Counted from the stretch's first letter, positions 2 through 10,298 are shown. The stretch is 64,000 bases of DNA from Thermoanaerobaculia bacterium (GCA_035536935.1 DATLNC010000183.1:188-64187), one strand, 5' to 3'. Program-made: numbers and translations. The notes: generated from the sequence alone by a model not told the origin.

Positions 2-610
2 GTCCAGCGCTGCTTCGCGGATCAGGAGGCCCAGGAGGACCCCCTCACCGGCGCGCTCCTGCGCCGCGCCCTGGAGCCCCGGCTCAATCAGGCGTACAGC
101 CGGGTCCTCCAGAACGGCGGCGCCATGTCCGTGATCCTCTGCGACATCGACCATTTCAAGCGGATCAACGACACTTTCGGCCACGCCGTGGGGGACCGGG
201 CGCTCGTCGCCGTCGCGGACGTGCTCAAGGGGAGCCGGCGGGATGGAGACCTCTGCTGCCGTTACGGCGGCGAGGAGTTCCTCCTCCTGGTGGATGGCAT
301 CGGCGGCGAGGATGCCTTGAGCATGGCCGAGCGGCTGCGCCGGACCGTGGAGGAGCTCGCCTTCGAGGTGGAAGGCCAGCGGGTGCCGCTCTCCTTCAGC
401 GCCGGGGTGGCCAGCTTCCCTGACCTCTACATGAAGTCCGCGGCCGAGCTGATCCTGTTCGCGGACGAGGCGCTCTACGAGTCCAAGCGCCGGGGACGCA
501 ACCGCTGCCTCCTCGACCTCGGCCAGGGGAAGTACCTGGATGCCGAGGGGAACGTGCTCGCCTCGGGCGAGGCGGCCGCGGCGCAGGCGGCTCCCCGGAT
601 CTTTGCGTGA
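2..610 (+). CDS. GGDEF-domain diguanylate cyclase, 5' end outside the window
   Basis: The frame is open from the window edge. Motifs: DPLTGALLRR, ILCDIDHFKRINDTFGH, RYGGEEFLLL (GGEEF site), ADEALYESKRRGRNR. ORF 125..610 is the C-terminal part. Confidence 0.85.
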   Translation, partial: VQRCFADQEAQEDPLTGALLRRALEPRLNQAYSRVLQNGGAMSVILCDIDHFKRINDTFGHAVGDRALVAVADVLKGSRRDGDLCCRYGGEEFLLLVDGIGGEDALSMAERLRRTVEELAFEVEGQRVPLSFSAGVASFPDLYMKSAAELILFADEALYESKRRGRNRCLLDLGQGKYLDAEGNVLASGEAAAAQAAPRIFA

Positions 611-663
611 GGGAGACTGATGGAGGCGGTCATCCTAGTCGGCATCGAGGGTTTCGACCGCCT

Positions 664-1440
664 CTATGTCGTCCGGCTCACCGAGGGGAACGAGTTCGTG
701 GTCGAAGAGTAGTCGGCCAGGACGGGGGGCTTCGCCGCGGGATCTTCCAGAAGGCGGAGGGCCGCTTCGAGCACCTCGTGCTGCCGCGGCGGATCGTCCG
801 GAGAATCGAGCGGATAGCCATGGGCGAAGGGGACGAAGAGGGCACGCGGCGGGCGGACCTCTTCCGCGACCTTCCTCAGGAGCATCAGCGTTACGGTGGA
901 GATCCCCTGGCGTTCGAGCTCGGCTGCTACCAGACTCACGGTCTGGTTGCACATCGGTCAGACAGGGACCAGGAGCGCGACATCCACCCCGTCCTCCACC
1001 AGCCGGCGGGCGGCCTCGGGCGCATGGTCGCGCACGAGCCTCCCCGGCGCGGTGATCGAGCCCATGAAGGAGAGATGGCGGTGGTTCAACCCACCGATCC
1101 GGCCGCGCTCCACCAGCTCCCGCGCCCGGTCGAGGGGGAAGGCGAGGTTGGGGTCCCGGTCCATCCCCTCGTGGTCGAAGCTCTGGCTCTTGTGCGTGTC
1201 GATCAGGGTGGAGAGGTCGGCGTCCGCCGGGATCTCGCGGAAGCTGCCGTCGCCTCCGGCAAGGGTCCTCTCGAAGGGCTTCTGCCCGGGGAGCACGAAC
1301 CCCGCGCTGGAGACCAGGGCGAGCCGGCTTTCAGACAGGGGTTTGCGCAGCGGAGCCCAGGGGACCGGATCGATCCGCCGCCAGCGGTATCCCTTGAGGA
1401 ACAGCCGGACCGGAACGCTGAGATCGCCTTCAGTTGCCAG
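664..1440 (-). CDS. GrdB-like (glycine/sarcosine/betaine reductase B family) putative selenoprotein with in-frame TGA at 958-960
   Basis: Same-frame ORFs 958..1296 and 664..954 are separated only by TGA: ...DGVDVALLVPV-[TGA]-PMCNQTVSLVAAELERQGISTV... This gives a U-x-x-C motif, with a hairpin 6 nt downstream. The frame stays open and protein-like upstream of the first canonical start (LSVPVRLFLKGYRWRRIDPVPWAPLRKPLSESRLALVSSAGF). The only start-like codon there is CTG 1438-1440, so the 5' end is uncertain. Confidence 0.6.
925..951 (-). promoter_or_regulatory. Candidate bacterial SECIS hairpin
   Basis: The minus strand reads UGCAACCAGAC-CGUGA-GUCUGGUAGCA. It forms an 11-bp stem with one A.A mismatch and a 5-nt loop containing GU. 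It starts 6 nt after the UGA at 958-960. Confidence 0.45.
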
Positions 1441-1987
1441 CCCGGGTCTCCAGCCGCACCTTGCGGATGAGCACGGGCTCCTTGGGCTCGTGGAAGGCGA
1501 CGTTCCCTTCCAGAAACTTCTCGTTCACCGGCACCGCGCCGATCTTCGCCAGGACGTCCATCCCCTCGATGATCTGGCCGAAGACGGTGAACCGGCCGTC
1601 CAGGTGGGGACGGGGGGCGAGGCAGACGTAGATCTCGGTGCTGCCGCTGTTCGGCGTCTTGTCGTGCGCCAATCCCAGGGCGCCGGCGACGTGCGGGTTC
1701 GAGTTGAACTCGTCCGGCACGGTGGGCCGGCCGCTCTCGCCGCCGTCTCCGGTCTGGATGACGTGCCCGGCGACCACGCGGTAGAAGGGCTTGCCGTCGT
1801 AGAAGCCTTCCTTTACCAGCGCTTTGAAGTTGGCCACGGTCTTGGGCGCGTCCTTCTCGAAGAGCTGGAAGACCATGGTCCCCAGGCTCGTCTCCAGGAC
1901 GGCGACCTCGGTCGGAGCGGGGGCTTGAGCGGAAAGGCTGGCGGTCAGAAGCAGGAGGAGGATCGCGGCTTTTTTCATGGCTGCCAC
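1430..1987 (-). CDS. Secreted cyclophilin-type peptidyl-prolyl cis-trans isomerase
   Basis: Motifs: FYRVVAGHVIQTGD, HDKTPNSGSTEIYVCL, LDGRFTVFGQIIEGMDVL. Signal peptide MKKAAILLLLLTASLSAQA. Start is GTG 1987 or ATG 1978. Confidence 0.9.
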   Translation of the reverse strand: MAAMKKAAILLLLLTASLSAQAPAPTEVAVLETSLGTMVFQLFEKDAPKTVANFKALVKEGFYDGKPFYRVVAGHVIQTGDGGESGRPTVPDEFNSNPHVAGALGLAHDKTPNSGSTEIYVCLAPRPHLDGRFTVFGQIIEGMDVLAKIGAVPVNEKFLEGNVAFHEPKEPVLIRKVRLETRAGN

Positions 1988-1988
1988 T

Positions 1989-3029
1989 TTAGGGCAGCGG
2001 CAGCAACGGGGTCCAGTCCCATTCGGGACATTGTCCTCCGAGAGGGGACATCTCCTGCCGCTCGGTCATCCGGTCCAGCGGCTCGGCCGCCCGGCGGAGG
2101 CTGTCGTACTCGGCCCGGTTGTTGCGCACCGCATCCCCTAACCAGGAGGGTTTCTGCTCCGCGGCGAGGTCTCCGGCGAGGTCCAGGGGGAGGAAGAAGG
2201 CGTCCTCGGGACGTTCCAGCAGCCCGCGGTCCGCGGCCTGGCGGGCGAAGGCGTGGTAGGCGGGAGAGAGGCGGTCGAGCGTGGCGCGCCAGGCCTCCCG
2301 GAACCGGCCCCGGTAGCGGTCGTGCCCGGCGACCGCCGCGGACTCCAACGCCCTCCTCGCCGATTCGGCCCGCTCCGGGGCCTCGGCCCAGGAGGGATCG
2401 AGGATGTCGGGCGGACCGAACAGGGAGAGCTCGGCCCGGCCCCGCGTCCGCAGGTTCCACGCCGCCCGGCTGAGCACGGGGGGCACGTCCTCGCCGGCCG
2501 CCCGTGCCGCTCTCCGGTTGATGGCGGCGATCAGGTCGGAGAGCAGGGCGTCCCCGACCCGGGGGAGCAGCCGGGTGAGGGTCGAGCGGAAGTGCTGCCA
2601 GAGCTGCTCGGGCGTCTCGTTCCAGCGCAGAGTCGAAGGCCGGCGCGGAGGCGGCCGGAAGCGGAGGAGACGGACCCGGTGGAAAGCCAGCGCCGCGCCC
2701 AGCTTCTGGGGGATGGCGGGGTACTGCGCCGCGCCCTCGGGCTCCAGCAGCGCGCCGAGCACCTCCTGCCCGCCGACCACGTCGGCCAGCAGGGGGCGGA
2801 GGTCCTTGCCGTAGAGGTAGAGCCGCAGCCGGATCGTCTTCACCGGCGGAGCGTCGGGCAGGGGGAGCCCCAGGTGGTAGAGGGCGTAGCGCAGGCCCGT
2901 CCCCACTCCGTGGCGGAGCAGGGTCACCCCGAGATGCGACAGGGGGGGCATCGGCCCGGGGGTCAGGAGGGCCCGGCTGTATGCGGGACGCTCCTCGTAA
3001 AGGCCGATGTGTTCCGGCTGTGCCTGCAT
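1989..3029 (-). CDS. Hypothetical protein
   Basis: Coding-like ORF directly upstream of the PPIase gene. Start set at ATG 3027-3029, which is preceded by GGAGAG. No family recognised. Confidence 0.6.
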   Translation of the reverse strand: MQAQPEHIGLYEERPAYSRALLTPGPMPPLSHLGVTLLRHGVGTGLRYALYHLGLPLPDAPPVKTIRLRLYLYGKDLRPLLADVVGGQEVLGALLEPEGAAQYPAIPQKLGAALAFHRVRLLRFRPPPRRPSTLRWNETPEQLWQHFRSTLTRLLPRVGDALLSDLIAAINRRAARAAGEDVPPVLSRAAWNLRTRGRAELSLFGPPDILDPSWAEAPERAESARRALESAAVAGHDRYRGRFREAWRATLDRLSPAYHAFARQAADRGLLERPEDAFFLPLDLAGDLAAEQKPSWLGDAVRNNRAEYDSLRRAAEPLDRMTERQEMSPLGGQCPEWDWTPLLPLP

Positions 3030-3109
3030 GCTGAAGCTCTCCGACCAGATAAGGTAGCACGGAGCCTGGGGTTTCAACCCCAGGCGGAGGACCATGGCAG
3101 AATGAGCCC

Positions 3110-5692
3110 GTGACCGACCTCGCCCTGCCAACTGCCCTTTCCCTGGAGCCCGAGCGCCCGGCCCGGGTATCGCTCGCCTCCCGGATCCGGCCCACTTCCG
3201 ATCCGGACGAGATCCTCGACCTCTTCGTGGACTGGGCCGCCGAGGCCGGGTTCGAGCTCTACCCGGCTCAGGAAGAAGCGCTCCTTGAGATCATGGCCGG
3301 CCGGCACGTGATCCTGAACACCCCGACCGGCTCGGGCAAGTCGCTGGTCGCGCTCGGCCTCCACTTCAAAGCCCTGTGCGAGGGACGGACCTCCTTCTAT
3401 ACGAGCCCGATCAAGGCGCTCGCCTCCGAGAAGTTCTTCGCCCTCTGCGACGAGTTCGGTGCCGAGAACGTGGGCATGCTCACCGGCGACGCCAGCATCA
3501 ACCCCGATGCCCGGGTGCTCTGCTGCACCGCTGAAGTGCTGTCCAACATGGCGCTGCGCCGGGGGGACCGCCTCGACGCCCCCTATGTGGTCATGGACGA
3601 GTTCCACTACTACTCCGACCCGGAGCGGGGCGTGGCCTGGCAGATCCCCCTGATCGTGCTCCCCCGCACGCGTTTCCTCCTGATGTCCGCCACCCTGGGC
3701 GACGTCAGCGGGATCGCCGAGCACGTCCGCCGCCGGACGGAGATCGAGGTCTCCCTGGTCACCTCGGAGCAGCGGCCCGTCCCCCTCGACTTCGACTACC
3801 GGGAGATGCCGCTCCACGAGACGGTCGAGTCCCTGCTCGAAACGGCCAGGTCGCCGATCTACATCGTCAACTTCACGCAGCGGGAGTGCGCCGAGCTGGC
3901 CCAGTCACTCACCAGCATGAAGATCTCCAGCCGGGAGGTGCGCGAGCGCATCCGCGAAGCCATGGGGGGCGTGCGGCTGGATACCCCGTACGGCAAGGAG
4001 TTCCGGCGCTTTCTCTCCTTCGGGATCGGGGTGCACCACGCGGGCCTCCTGCCCAAGTACCGGCTCCTCGTCGAGCAGCTCGCGCAGCAGGGGTTGCTGC
4101 GGGTGATCTCCGGCACCGATACGCTGGGGGTCGGGGTGAACATCCCGATCCGCACGGTGCTCTTCACCCGGCTGGCCAAGTTCGACGGCCGCAAGGTCTC
4201 GCTCCTCTCGGTGCGGGACTTCAAGCAGATCGCCGGCCGCGCCGGGCGCAAGGGGTTCGACACCGAGGGCAGCGTGGTGGCCCAGGCGCCGGAGCACATC
4301 ATCGAGAAGCGCCTGGCCGAGCGCAAAGGGAAGAAAGTACAGGCCAAGTCGGCCGCCAAAGGGGAGGTCACCTGGACCCAGGAGACCTTCGACAAGCTGA
4401 TCACCCGGCCGCCGGAGACCCTGAAGTCCCGCTTCCGGGTCACCCACGGCACGGTCCTCGACCTCCTCCAGCGCGACGCCGAGCTCGACGATCCGGACCT
4501 GCGCAACTTCGACTCCCTGCGCGACCTCATCAGCCACTGCCACGAGGAGGAGGGGTCGAAGGCCCGGCATCTCTCCCAGGCGGCGGTCCTGGTGCGCTCG
4601 CTCTACCGCGCCGGGATCATCCGGATGAAGCGCGACAAGGTGGGCACCTACCTCTGGGCGGTGGTGGCCGAGGACCTCCAGTGGGACTTCTCCCTCCATC
4701 ACGCCCTCTCGCTCTACCTGGTGGAGACGGTCGATCAGCTCAGCCCGGAGTCCGAGACCTACGCGCTCGACCTGATGACCCTGGTCGAGTCGATCCTGGA
4801 GGACCCGGACGTCATCCTCCGCAAGCAGGTGGACAAGATCAAGGGGGAGCTGGTCGCGCAGCTCAAGGCGGACGGCATCCAGTACGAGGAGCGCATGGAG
4901 CGGCTGGAAGAGATCACGCATCCGAAGCCGCTCGCGGACTTCCTCTACGGCACCTACAACCGCTTCCGGGGAGAGCACCCATGGGTGGGCGGGCACGACG
5001 TCCATCCGAAGTCGATCGCCCGCGAGATGTACGAGGGCTACATGTCCTTCGCGGACTATGTGAAGAAATACGGCCTGCAGCGCAGCGAGGGGGTGCTGCT
5101 GCGCTACCTCTCGCAGCTCTACAAGACGCTGGACCAGAGCGTGCCCGAGTACGCGAAGACGGCCGAGGTCTGGGATGCCCTGGGCTACTTCCGGGCGCTG
5201 ATCCACCACACGGACACGAGCCTCCTGGAAGAGTGGGAGAGCCTGCTCCACCCCGAGCTTCGCCTGATGCGCCTGCAGCGCCACCAGGCCGCCGAGGCGC
5301 TCTGGCTCAAGCAGCTGCTCGCCGACCCCAAGGCCTTTGCCGCGAGGATGAGGGCCGAGCTGCACCTGCTCGTCCGCGCCCTCGCCGAGAAGGAGTGGGA
5401 GGACGCCTCCGCGGCGGTGCTCCAGGACGCGGACGATCCCTGGACCCCGGAGCGTTTCGAAGAGTCGCTGAAGCCCTTCTACGAAGAGTACGGCGAGCTG
5501 GTCTTCACCCCGGAGGCCCGCCGCCACCAGCACACCCACATCCGCGAGGTGGACGAGCGCGTCTGGGAAGTGGCCCAGACGATCCTCGACCCGCAGGGCG
5601 ACAACCTCTGGGCCGTGCAGGGGATCGTGGACCTGCGGGACCCGGATGTGATGGACGGCCCGCTGGTGAAGGTGGCGCGGGTGTCGGCGTAG
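3110..5692 (+). CDS. Ski2/DEAD-DEAH-type helicase with a long C-terminal domain (DUF3516-type architecture)
   Basis: Walker A TPTGSGKSLVA, DEFH box VVMDEFHYY, MSATLG, GVHHAGLLP, TDTLGVGVNIP, QIAGRAGRKG. A conserved tail of about 400 aa follows. Confidence 0.85.
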   Translation: MTDLALPTALSLEPERPARVSLASRIRPTSDPDEILDLFVDWAAEAGFELYPAQEEALLEIMAGRHVILNTPTGSGKSLVALGLHFKALCEGRTSFYTSPIKALASEKFFALCDEFGAENVGMLTGDASINPDARVLCCTAEVLSNMALRRGDRLDAPYVVMDEFHYYSDPERGVAWQIPLIVLPRTRFLLMSATLGDVSGIAEHVRRRTEIEVSLVTSEQRPVPLDFDYREMPLHETVESLLETARSPIYIVNFTQRECAELAQSLTSMKISSREVRERIREAMGGVRLDTPYGKEFRRFLSFGIGVHHAGLLPKYRLLVEQLAQQGLLRVISGTDTLGVGVNIPIRTVLFTRLAKFDGRKVSLLSVRDFKQIAGRAGRKGFDTEGSVVAQAPEHIIEKRLAERKGKKVQAKSAAKGEVTWTQETFDKLITRPPETLKSRFRVTHGTVLDLLQRDAELDDPDLRNFDSLRDLISHCHEEEGSKARHLSQAAVLVRSLYRAGIIRMKRDKVGTYLWAVVAEDLQWDFSLHHALSLYLVETVDQLSPESETYALDLMTLVESILEDPDVILRKQVDKIKGELVAQLKADGIQYEERMERLEEITHPKPLADFLYGTYNRFRGEHPWVGGHDVHPKSIAREMYEGYMSFADYVKKYGLQRSEGVLLRYLSQLYKTLDQSVPEYAKTAEVWDALGYFRALIHHTDTSLLEEWESLLHPELRLMRLQRHQAAEALWLKQLLADPKAFAARMRAELHLLVRALAEKEWEDASAAVLQDADDPWTPERFEESLKPFYEEYGELVFTPEARRHQHTHIREVDERVWEVAQTILDPQGDNLWAVQGIVDLRDPDVMDGPLVKVARVSA

Positions 5693-8957: not shown

Positions 8958-10298
8958 TCAAACCATCCCCCCTTCGGGCACGATCTCCACGCCTTCCAGG
9001 CGCAAAGTCGGGGCCGTGGCCCAGACCGGCAGCTTCTGTCCCCCCTTGGCGCACCAGCCCGCGCCGGCCGGCCGGGCTTCCCTGCCCACGGCGGTGACGC
9101 GGGTCAGCAGGTCGGCCACCCGGCCGCGGAGCACGCACGGTCCGACCGTGTCGCCCAGGGCGCCGCGGCGGATGCGCCGGGCAAAGGGAAGGTGGAGACG
9201 GAACTCGCCCGAGAGCGGATCGAGCGCGCCGCGGCTCGCCTCCTGGAGATAGAGGCCGCCGTCCGCGTCGGTGAGCAGGTCGTCGTCCGTGGCGTCCCCA
9301 TGCAGCATCTCCAGGTGCGTGGACCGGGGGCCCGGAGGGAGATGGCGGGTGCCGCGGCGTCCCGCTCCCGGCACGAACACGGGCGAGGTCCGCGCCCAGA
9401 GGAGGTCGGCGAGCGGCTGCTCCACGACTCCGCCGCGCAGGAGCCAGCGGCGGAAAACGGCCGAGCCCTCGTCGTCCGTGGTCCGCCGCACCTCGGCCGG
9501 GGCCGCGGCCGGATCGTCGAGCACGTCGACGGAGGGGGCGGCCATCGAGACTCCCACCGCCGCCTCCGGGTTCCCTCCCTGGGCGAGGACGTCGGCCTCC
9601 AGGGCATGGGCGACCGCCTCATGGAGAAGGACGGCCACGGCCGCCGGCGCCAGGATCGCGGTCCCCCGGTACGGCTCGGGGAGGGACGCCTGCCGGGCGC
9701 GGAACAGGTGGACGAGGGAGGCGGCGAACGCTTCGATGGCGTTGGCGTCGAGCCGCGGATGGATGGCGCCGTGCCCTCCCCAGGTGGTCTGGGCCTGCAG
9801 GCTGTAGAACGTCTCCGTCTCCTGGCCGGCGACGAGCCGCGAACCCACGACCTGGACCCAGCGGCGATGGCGCCGGACCGTCAGCCGGGAGGGGAACCCG
9901 ACGTGATGGGAGCGGATCGCGCGCGACAGCGCTTCGGGGATGCCGGCCAGCTCGGCCGCAATATGGGGAACATGCGGGTCGGGCTGGAACGGCGGCATCT
10001 TGAAGGCCGGCTCCGGGTAGGTGGCGGAGGGCAGGGCGCGCGCCACCTGCCGCAGGGCCTCGGCGAACGGCCTGGCGTCGACGTTGTCGCGGGCCGCGAG
10101 CCAGGTATGGCCCTCGCGGGAGAGGCGGATGGCGAACCCTTCTTCCCGGCGCACACGGAGGCCGGGCCCCTCGTCCTCGGGAGGCAGCTCGGCCTCCTCG
10201 CGGCGCTCGAAGAAGGCGTCCACCACGTCCTCGGGCTGCTCGGCGATCTGGGAAAGGGTGCGGGCGACGGCGGCGGTGTCCAGCTCGGAGAAAGGCAT
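8958..10298 (-). CDS. tldD: TldD-family metalloprotease
   Basis: HEAVAHALEAD (HExxxH) motif. Length and order match TldD. Start set at MPFSELDTAAV. Confidence 0.85.
   Translation of the reverse strand: MPFSELDTAAVARTLSQIAEQPEDVVDAFFERREEAELPPEDEGPGLRVRREEGFAIRLSREGHTWLAARDNVDARPFAEALRQVARALPSATYPEPAFKMPPFQPDPHVPHIAAELAGIPEALSRAIRSHHVGFPSRLTVRRHRRWVQVVGSRLVAGQETETFYSLQAQTTWGGHGAIHPRLDANAIEAFAASLVHLFRARQASLPEPYRGTAILAPAAVAVLLHEAVAHALEADVLAQGGNPEAAVGVSMAAPSVDVLDDPAAAPAEVRRTTDDEGSAVFRRWLLRGGVVEQPLADLLWARTSPVFVPGAGRRGTRHLPPGPRSTHLEMLHGDATDDDLLTDADGGLYLQEASRGALDPLSGEFRLHLPFARRIRRGALGDTVGPCVLRGRVADLLTRVTAVGREARPAGAGWCAKGGQKLPVWATAPTLRLEGVEIVPEGGMV

Follow-up and report, generated by a model that had tools for sequence, protein, structure and literature searches.

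The selenoprotein family recorded as 'Proline reductase PrdB' (pfam07355, with a UxxC motif) ranked third in abundance among the selenoprotein families of the Sargasso Sea, where 42 forms contained selenocysteine (Sec) against one Cys form (PMC1088965), and PrdB was again among the top selenoprotein families of the Global Ocean Sampling (GOS) survey, with 235 Sec and 110 Cys forms (PMC2398784). A survey of bacterial genomes lists the PrdB family in Anaeromyxobacter and Geobacter, which are not Stickland organisms, and has Acidobacteria on record with selenoproteins (PMC1794560). In recent reviews the family still figures as D-proline reductase (PMC9312934, PMC13188914), and no paper was found in the literature that sets an orphan branch apart from this enzyme. 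The present analysis concerns a gene of this kind in a 64,000-nucleotide (nt) stretch of DNA from a Thermoanaerobaculia bacterium (GCA_035536935.1, DATLNC010000183.1:188-64187), referred to here as the window, which has 68% G+C and carries the gene on its minus strand. The locus is very probably a stand-alone PrdB-like selenoprotein gene, with a UGA that would be decoded through a selenocysteine insertion sequence (SECIS) and translation that would start at a CUG. The gene is well supported as an ordinary selenoprotein of a kind counted in surveys since 2005, its oddity being the conserved CTG.

Translation of 1440..661 on the minus strand gave a single frame of 258 codons, which reads LATEGDLSVPVRLFLKGYRWRRIDPVPW...ALLVPV up to the sole internal stop, the TGA at 960-958, and then PMCNQTVSLVAAELERQGISTV...SRTT up to the terminal stop TAG (666-664). 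The context of the internal TGA is ...DVALLVPV-U-PMC-NQTVSLVAAELERQGISTV... when it is read as Sec. An earlier note, made from the sequence alone, had read the frame in this way and proposed a selenoprotein with a SECIS hairpin, and the frame, the TGA, the hairpin and the flanking genes that it described are all in place. The codon at the Sec column was then compared among relatives by scanning one genome per species, which gave 80 loci from about ten phyla, including Thermoanaerobaculia, Holophagales, other Acidobacteriota, Binatia, Myxococcota, Desulfobacterales (Desulfobacterota), Thermodesulfobacteriota, Verrucomicrobiota, Spirochaetales, Sumerlaeota, Nitrospirae and Brocadia. At least 72 of these genes had TGA at the Sec column and two had TGC (L040 and L062). 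The latter two and seven Cys forms from other collections (L084 and L086-L091) make up a set of nine Cys forms, all with TGC or TGT; their sampling included a DNA-pattern scan of metagenomes, which gave four loci, and four further look-ups.

On the 3' side of the UGA, the pattern PxCNQ..L.AAELER.GI.TV is conserved across all loci. In the comparison of the window with L008, which is 94% identical, the differences after the UGA number 4, 3 and 18 at the first, second and third codon positions, and by this distribution the downstream region is translated and subject to purifying selection. The relatives thus show the UGA at 960-958 to behave as a sense codon that alternates with Cys, and the selenoprotein proposal is borne out both by the Sec column and by the conservation that continues past the UGA.

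A homologue search of 5.8 billion proteins returned 3,366 matches, and the family comprises 734 clusters at 50% identity (E-value up to 1e-10). Among the best 120 of the 3,366 matches, 97 stop just before the Sec column, 20 have Cys there, two have Gly and one has 'W', while the 150 representatives at 50% identity include 50 truncated at this column, 30 with Cys and six with Ser. A 'W' at the Sec column, present in two or three database proteins, is read as a TGA called as Trp. The best matches fall into two classes: uninterrupted proteins of about 247 residues with C-P-M-C, to which the window protein is 74% identical, and far more numerous 160-residue proteins ending in ...ALLVPV, to which it is 95% identical. 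The 160-residue proteins come from genes that gene callers end at the TGA. In public gene calls the gene appears as two pieces, of 160 and 95 amino acids (aa) in L001-L003 and of 112 and 96 aa in L092 and L093, the latter belonging to the CTG lineage, where callers fall back on the GTG at 1296. In some relatives (P0022 and other representatives) the Sec/Cys column is occupied by Gly (GPLC) or Ser while the second Cys is retained; the first redox residue would therefore not be universally required.

The hairpin begins 6 nt past the UGA, and its 5' arm UGCAACCAGAC (951-941) and 3' arm GUCUGGUAGCA (935-925) enclose the loop CGUGA (940-936), with one A.A mismatch. The stem is laid out as a lower helix of 3 base pairs (bp; 951-949/927-925), a conserved unpaired A.N (948, 928) and an upper helix of 7 bp (947-941/935-929). 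The upper helix starts about 10 nt and the 5-nt loop 17 nt past the UGA, the latter distance being within the range of the bacterial SECIS consensus. In a covariation alignment (A4) of 72 distinct Sec-form sequences, evaluated over ten pairs, 94.6% of the pair cells were paired, compared with 16-47% when the 3' arm was slid by 1-3 columns. Both-sided (compensatory) changes occurred in five of the ten pairs (42 cells), and none of 500 shuffles reached the observed values. The wobble base of the Asn codon (AAC/AAU) covaries with the first base of the Val/Ile codon (GUC/AUC), with 57 C-G and 12 U-A pairs, and the first base of the Thr/Ala codon (ACC/GCC) covaries with the wobble base of the Ser/Gly/Cys codon (xGU/xGC), with 27 A-U and 38 G-C pairs; CAA..UUG and GGU..ACC are covariations seen in a single case each. 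Because several of these covariations couple a synonymous wobble base to a non-synonymous change, the constraint acts on the RNA. Ser at the Ser/Gly/Cys position is always encoded by AGY and never by UCN, whereby the paired G is kept, and the A at position 13 after the U of the UGA is never paired. The loop is NGUNN, with G939 and U938 invariant in 73 of 73 Sec forms.

The hairpin differed in the nine Cys forms. The loop GU was present in only one of them, the Val codon of the loop (GUN) being replaced (TMC, ASD, AAC and others), and the stem retained a mean of 6.9 of the ten pairs. The mean minimum free energy of the 27-nt segment was -14.0 kcal/mol in the Sec forms versus about -4.6 kcal/mol in the Cys forms (-5.1 for TGC and -3.7 for TGT). 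Such decay is the pattern expected of an element that recodes UGA, and, judged from these comparisons, the hairpin is a genuine SECIS, in agreement with the earlier proposal. In a Binatia genome (L012) the gene occurs twice, at a distance of about 4 kb, with TGA at 10134 and 14317 and the hairpin intact in both.

Analysis of the 5' end revealed no in-frame ATG, GTG or TTG between the upstream stop and the GTG at 1296, and at the conserved N-terminus this leaves only the CTG at 1440-1438 as a candidate. Its homologous counterparts, with the pattern M-[GA]-x-x-x-[ED]-[FL]...R.F...Y.WRR, start at one fixed position in 71 loci, with ATG in 46, GTG in 13 and TTG in 12, and it is exactly at this position that the window and L008 have CTG, as the earlier reading of a CTG start had it. 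The stop of the upstream cyclophilin gene (TGA 1432-1430) lies 5 nt past the CTG codon, inside codons 3-4 of the selenoprotein gene, and the two genes overlap by 11 nt. L001, L002, L005 and the contig type X4 have 11 nt more at this junction, and as a consequence the GGAG that lies 18 nt upstream of the start position in ATG-type relatives lies 7 nt upstream of it in the window. An assembly error behind the CTG was considered and rejected: Logan contigs of the source soil run (X1), an independent assembly, match 934-2100 with zero differences, and in three other soil datasets the related strains X2, X5 (118x) and X6 (185x) differ in adjacent bases but have both the short junction and the CTG.

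Between the CTG and the first canonical start, codons 2-48 (47 codons) differ between the window and L008 at 1, 1 and 8 first, second and third positions, with a binomial probability of about 0.003 for at least 8 of 10 differences at third positions; for codons 49-160 the corresponding counts are 5, 2 and 19. Owing to this bias, codons 2-48 appear to be still translated and under purifying selection, and the CTG is taken to be real. In this lineage translation would initiate at the CUG at 1440-1438, probably aided by the repositioned GGAG and by coupling to the translation of the cyclophilin. It is quite improbable that the gene is instead dying in this lineage, the 11-nt deletion at the junction and the change of ATG to CTG having removed the start and left an untranslated or barely translated relic. 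The shortened junction and the absence of a canonical start before the GTG at 1296 would fit such a loss, and CUG is a poor initiator in E. coli. However, the window, L008, X2, X5 and X6 all retain the CTG, the intact open reading frame (ORF), the TGA and the SECIS despite differences in neighbouring bases, the third-position bias recurs in codons 2-48, in codons 49-160 and after the UGA, and the deletion puts the GGAG at an ideal spacing from the CTG.

The read-through product passed the cut-off of the Pfam GRDB model (PF07355; 38.7 bits against 22), with residues 12-152 matching profile positions 206-345 of 347, which are the C-terminal part only. Among the NCBIfam models, the best match was TIGR04483 (PrdB), aligned over residues 21-227, with 114 bits against a cut-off of 300 that was not reached. 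The models of protein B of glycine/sarcosine/betaine reductase (TIGR01917, NF040794 and NF040795) were missed as well, with 40.6 bits against 602 for GrdB (TIGR01917), 51.4 against 800 for GrdF and 53.3 against 775 for GrdH, their profiles being matched only in the C-terminal half; the subfamily model TIGR01918 gave 43 bits against 65.45. Since every curated NCBIfam model was missed, the protein is a PrdB-sized relative of protein B and neither PrdB nor GrdB. The family assignment made in the earlier note, to GRDB, therefore stands, with PrdB rather than GrdB as the nearest curated model. JGI names the homologues 'D-proline reductase (dithiol) PrdB', and NCBI/JGI names ('selenoprotein B family protein', 'D-proline reductase PrdB') are attached to the truncated N-terminal piece.

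Some members of the family depart from this architecture. P0128, P0133, P0159, P0161 and about 15 other representatives are Cys forms of 380-420 aa that share, at the C-terminus, a conserved extension of about 160 aa, for which a Rosetta-stone search gave no Pfam match and no homologue in any fetched locus flank; in the same search, HTH_3 and AMP-binding fusions were single cases each. In P0214, residues 255-314 (around CxxC) gave a weak, sub-threshold match to the Pfam 'UGSC family' (PF24696, E-value 9e-4). Since UGSC, too, is a selenoprotein family abundant in the sea, a distant relationship is possible.

Genomic context was analysed from the ORFs within 7.5 kb on each side of 81 loci, clustered by all-against-all BLASTP. 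No conserved partner gene was found, as no family other than the gene itself and antisense shadows occurred in more than 15 of the 81 loci. Recurrent neighbours were confined to lineages, namely ABC transporters (Desulfobacterales), SDR proteins and an alpha/beta-hydrolase-OsmC protein in 9 loci. Gly_reductase (PrdA/GrdE) and GRDA domains were absent from the Pfam-annotated contexts of Sec and Cys forms, and a Pfam scan of 59 ORFs spanning the whole window found housekeeping genes and no GRDA, Gly_reductase, prd or grd genes. These results agree with the earlier view of the gene as standing alone. The cyclophilin gene lies upstream in only 8 close relatives, and its adjacency is a matter of lineage synteny and not of a family-wide partner; a functional link was rejected on this ground and in view of the apparently secreted nature of the cyclophilin.

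The same data bear on the reading of the protein as a true subunit of D-proline or glycine/betaine reductase with partner genes (prdA, grdE, grdA and others) elsewhere in the genome. The best curated match and the JGI names favour this reading, but it is very unlikely, given the shortfall against PrdB (114 versus 300 bits) and against GrdB, GrdF and GrdH (40-53 versus 600-800 bits) and the absence of a linked partner in the 81 loci of about ten phyla. Moreover, known prd and grd genes are operonic (PMC13188914), and the organisms that carry the gene are soil Acidobacteriota, Binatia, Verrucomicrobiota and the like, not Stickland fermenters.

The AlphaFold2 model of the Cys homologue P0001 (pLDDT 92.7, pTM 0.92) showed an alpha/beta fold in which the C/U-x-x-C motif (Cys161) lies between strand 154-158 and helix 164-177. 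CxxC or UxxC at the N-terminus of a helix is typical of redox-active centres. A sequence search of the PDB with the family profile gave nothing below an E-value of 0.6, and Foldseek of the P0001 model against the PDB gave a best E-value of 0.02 with TM-scores of at most 0.35 and no close fold match. Neither search of the PDB found a solved relative or offered a lead on function, and this is a fold class without an experimental structure. Outside the motif, the residues R12, R22, H83, D89, D96, N98, R105, R134, E176 and R177 are invariant, and the charged ones among them point to a pocket for a substrate rather than to a protein that only carries electrons.

A mechanism can be proposed on this basis. 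The one gene would give a cytoplasmic selenoprotein of about 258 residues, belonging to a stand-alone 'PrdB-like' branch of GRDB (PF07355). SelB carrying Sec-tRNA(Sec) would bind the hairpin on the translating mRNA and insert Sec. Because the motif sits between a beta-strand and the N-terminus of a helix in the model, Sec161 and Cys164 (951-949) would form a redox-active selenol/thiol pair that cycles via a selenenylsulfide, as in PrdB. In the catalytic cycle, which is drawn by analogy with PrdB (PMC13188914), the selenolate would attack the substrate, Cys164 would resolve the adduct to the selenenylsulfide, and a dithiol donor such as thioredoxin would re-reduce the pair. We infer from this analogy that the protein functions as a selenol/thiol reductase. 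Its substrate would not be the proline or glycine of the classical complexes, because no PrdA, GrdE, GrdA or GrdC is linked to the gene in any lineage. A more far-reaching idea, which we consider doubtful, is that orphan PrdB-like selenoproteins are self-contained reductases, in which Sec attacks a carbon of the substrate and displaces a good leaving group with no pyruvoyl partner, and that a low expression is set by the conserved CUG start coupled to the upstream gene. Direct attack of Sec on a substrate carbon has been proposed for betaine reductase. If the idea were true, soil and marine bacteria would commonly possess a reductive cleavage of C-N or C-X bonds that has so far gone unrecognised.

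Several observations weigh against a SECIS-decoded selenoprotein gene with a CUG start. The folding energy of the 76-nt region is no better than that of shuffled sequence (z = 0.17), and support for the predicted hairpin comes from the comparison with relatives and not from stability. Rfam at the gathering threshold gave no match in the whole window, and at E-values up to 10 the segment 860-1010 gave only a chance miRNA match on the wrong strand. Neither selA, selB nor selD is among the 59 ORFs of the window, which covers 64 kb only, and no tRNA was detected in the window, hence no selC there. In addition, the count that points to purifying selection in codons 2-48 consists of just 10 differences, and the structural model is that of a Cys homologue 70-74% identical to the window protein and not of the window protein itself.

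Another possibility is that the UGA is recoded to a residue other than Sec, either to Cys by selC*, an opal-suppressor tRNA(Cys) resembling tRNA(Sec), or by near-cognate read-through. Such selC* tRNAs are known in Firmicutes, Thermodesulfobacteria, Nitrospirae and Proteobacteria, suppressor allo-tRNAs are known in Acidobacteria (PMC5389517), and some of the 80 loci come from phyla that bear selC*. Nevertheless, this explanation deserves very little credence, as selC* is not reported for Acidobacteria in the same paper (PMC5389517), Acidobacteria are recorded with selenoproteins (PMC1794560), and three surveys include the family among the selenoproteins. Neither the window nor the 92 loci contained a selC*-type tRNA, a weak point in view of the short flanks, and no tRNA-Sec was found in the flanks of these 92 loci. 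A split gene, with the UGA at 960-958 as a true stop and a restart at the ATG at 954-952 to give subunits of about 160 and 96 residues, is what gene callers annotate everywhere and has in its favour the ATG 3 nt past the TGA in the window, but it is scarcely tenable and fails because about 20 Sec forms have no ATG for a restart (the codon after Pro being ACG, TTC, TTT, ATT, ATA, GTC, GTT, CTG or CTC), the Cys forms being, moreover, single polypeptides with Cys in exactly the Sec column and the covarying hairpin and its loss in Cys forms being left without a role. Decoding of the UGA as Sec through the hairpin is thus the preferred reading.

The features of the locus are collected in Table 1.

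Table 1. Features of the selenoprotein locus and its neighbours, in window coordinates, with the basis of each assignment.
Feature	Position	Strand	Basis
PrdB-like (GRDB family) selenoprotein gene, predicted, about 258 codons including Sec	664..1440	-	translation, Pfam GRDB, homologues
In-frame UGA, first residue of U-P-M-C; partner Cys at 951-949	958..960	-	TGA/TGC/TGT column in relatives
SECIS hairpin, predicted	925..951	-	covariation, comparison of Sec and Cys forms
CTG aligned with the start codon of homologues, putative initiation codon	1438..1440	-	alignment of homologues
GGAG, Shine-Dalgarno-like, 7 nt upstream of the CTG, within Leu-Glu codons of the cyclophilin gene	1448..1451	-	sequence; function inferred
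Cyclophilin-type peptidyl-prolyl isomerase with signal-peptide-like N-terminus	1430..1978	-	Pfam Pro_isomerase, 130 bits
Convergent gene for a GGDEF diguanylate cyclase, incomplete at the end of the window	2..610	+	Pfam GGDEF, 146 bits

The flanks of the locus showed two further ORFs. A 30-codon ORF on the plus strand, MEAVILVGIEGFDRLYVVRLTEGNEFVVEE at 620-712, is preceded at 5 nt by GGGAG and shares part of its length with the 3' end of the selenoprotein gene. In L001, L004 and L008 its last 20 residues form the C-terminal end of a convergent gene that is much longer, and this ORF therefore looks like a remnant of a rearrangement near 646 that introduced the GGDEF gene; the contigs X3 and X4 part from the window at 646. 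On the other side, an ORF of 380 aa at 1989-3131 on the minus strand adjoins the cyclophilin gene upstream, has no Pfam match and is kept only in close relatives among Thermoanaerobaculia and Holophagales.

The value of the locus lies in its clean SECIS evidence, in the demonstration of an orphan, mis-annotated family and in the conserved CTG start. Automatic annotation systematically breaks the family into 160-aa stumps and 95-aa orphans, or into pieces of 112 and 96 aa in the CTG lineage, and many members are named 'D-proline reductase' in organisms without such an enzyme. The family is abundant and has a strong preference for Sec rather than Cys, but lacks a solved structure or close fold match in the PDB. 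With a covariation-backed SECIS model and a fold predicted with confidence, it is a tractable subject in which to look for a new selenoenzyme activity, and the conserved CUG start would represent a small natural case of non-canonical initiation in Acidobacteriota.

When compared to known systems, the predicted hairpin shares with the E. coli fdhF-type SECIS and the bSECIS consensus a stem-loop directly 3' of the UGA in the coding region and the G-U of the apical loop, but it has a 5-nt NGUNN loop and a conserved 1x1 A.N mismatch instead of the bulged U of fdhF, and has no Rfam match. The minimal SECIS element of fdhF lies 11 nt downstream of the UGA. The window protein is homologous to the C-terminal half of GrdB, GrdF and GrdH (profile positions of about 206-425), with Sec in the equivalent place; unlike these proteins of about 430 aa, it is without the N-terminal domain of about 200 residues and has no grdA, grdC, grdD or grdE neighbours, and its motif is U-P-M-C-N-Q-T compared to the UxxCxxC of GrdB (PMC13188914). 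With the clostridial D-proline reductase PrdB, a 26-kDa selenoprotein subunit, it has in common a comparable length (about 240-260 aa), a Sec placed at roughly the same residue (161 here) and the U-x-x-C motif, whereas it scores 114 of the 300 bits needed and has no PrdA pyruvoyl proprotein, PrdC or other prd gene near any of the 81 loci. The 'PrdB' family of the surveys (Zhang and Gladyshev, 2005, 2006, 2008) shares the Pfam domain, the U-x-x-C motif and the excess of Sec over Cys (here at least 72 versus 2), a likeness drawn from the features that the surveys describe, and these papers lump the orphan branch with true PrdB and its function. From these survey sets the window gene differs in its lineage, that of soil Acidobacteriota (Thermoanaerobaculia/Holophagales-like), and in its CTG start.

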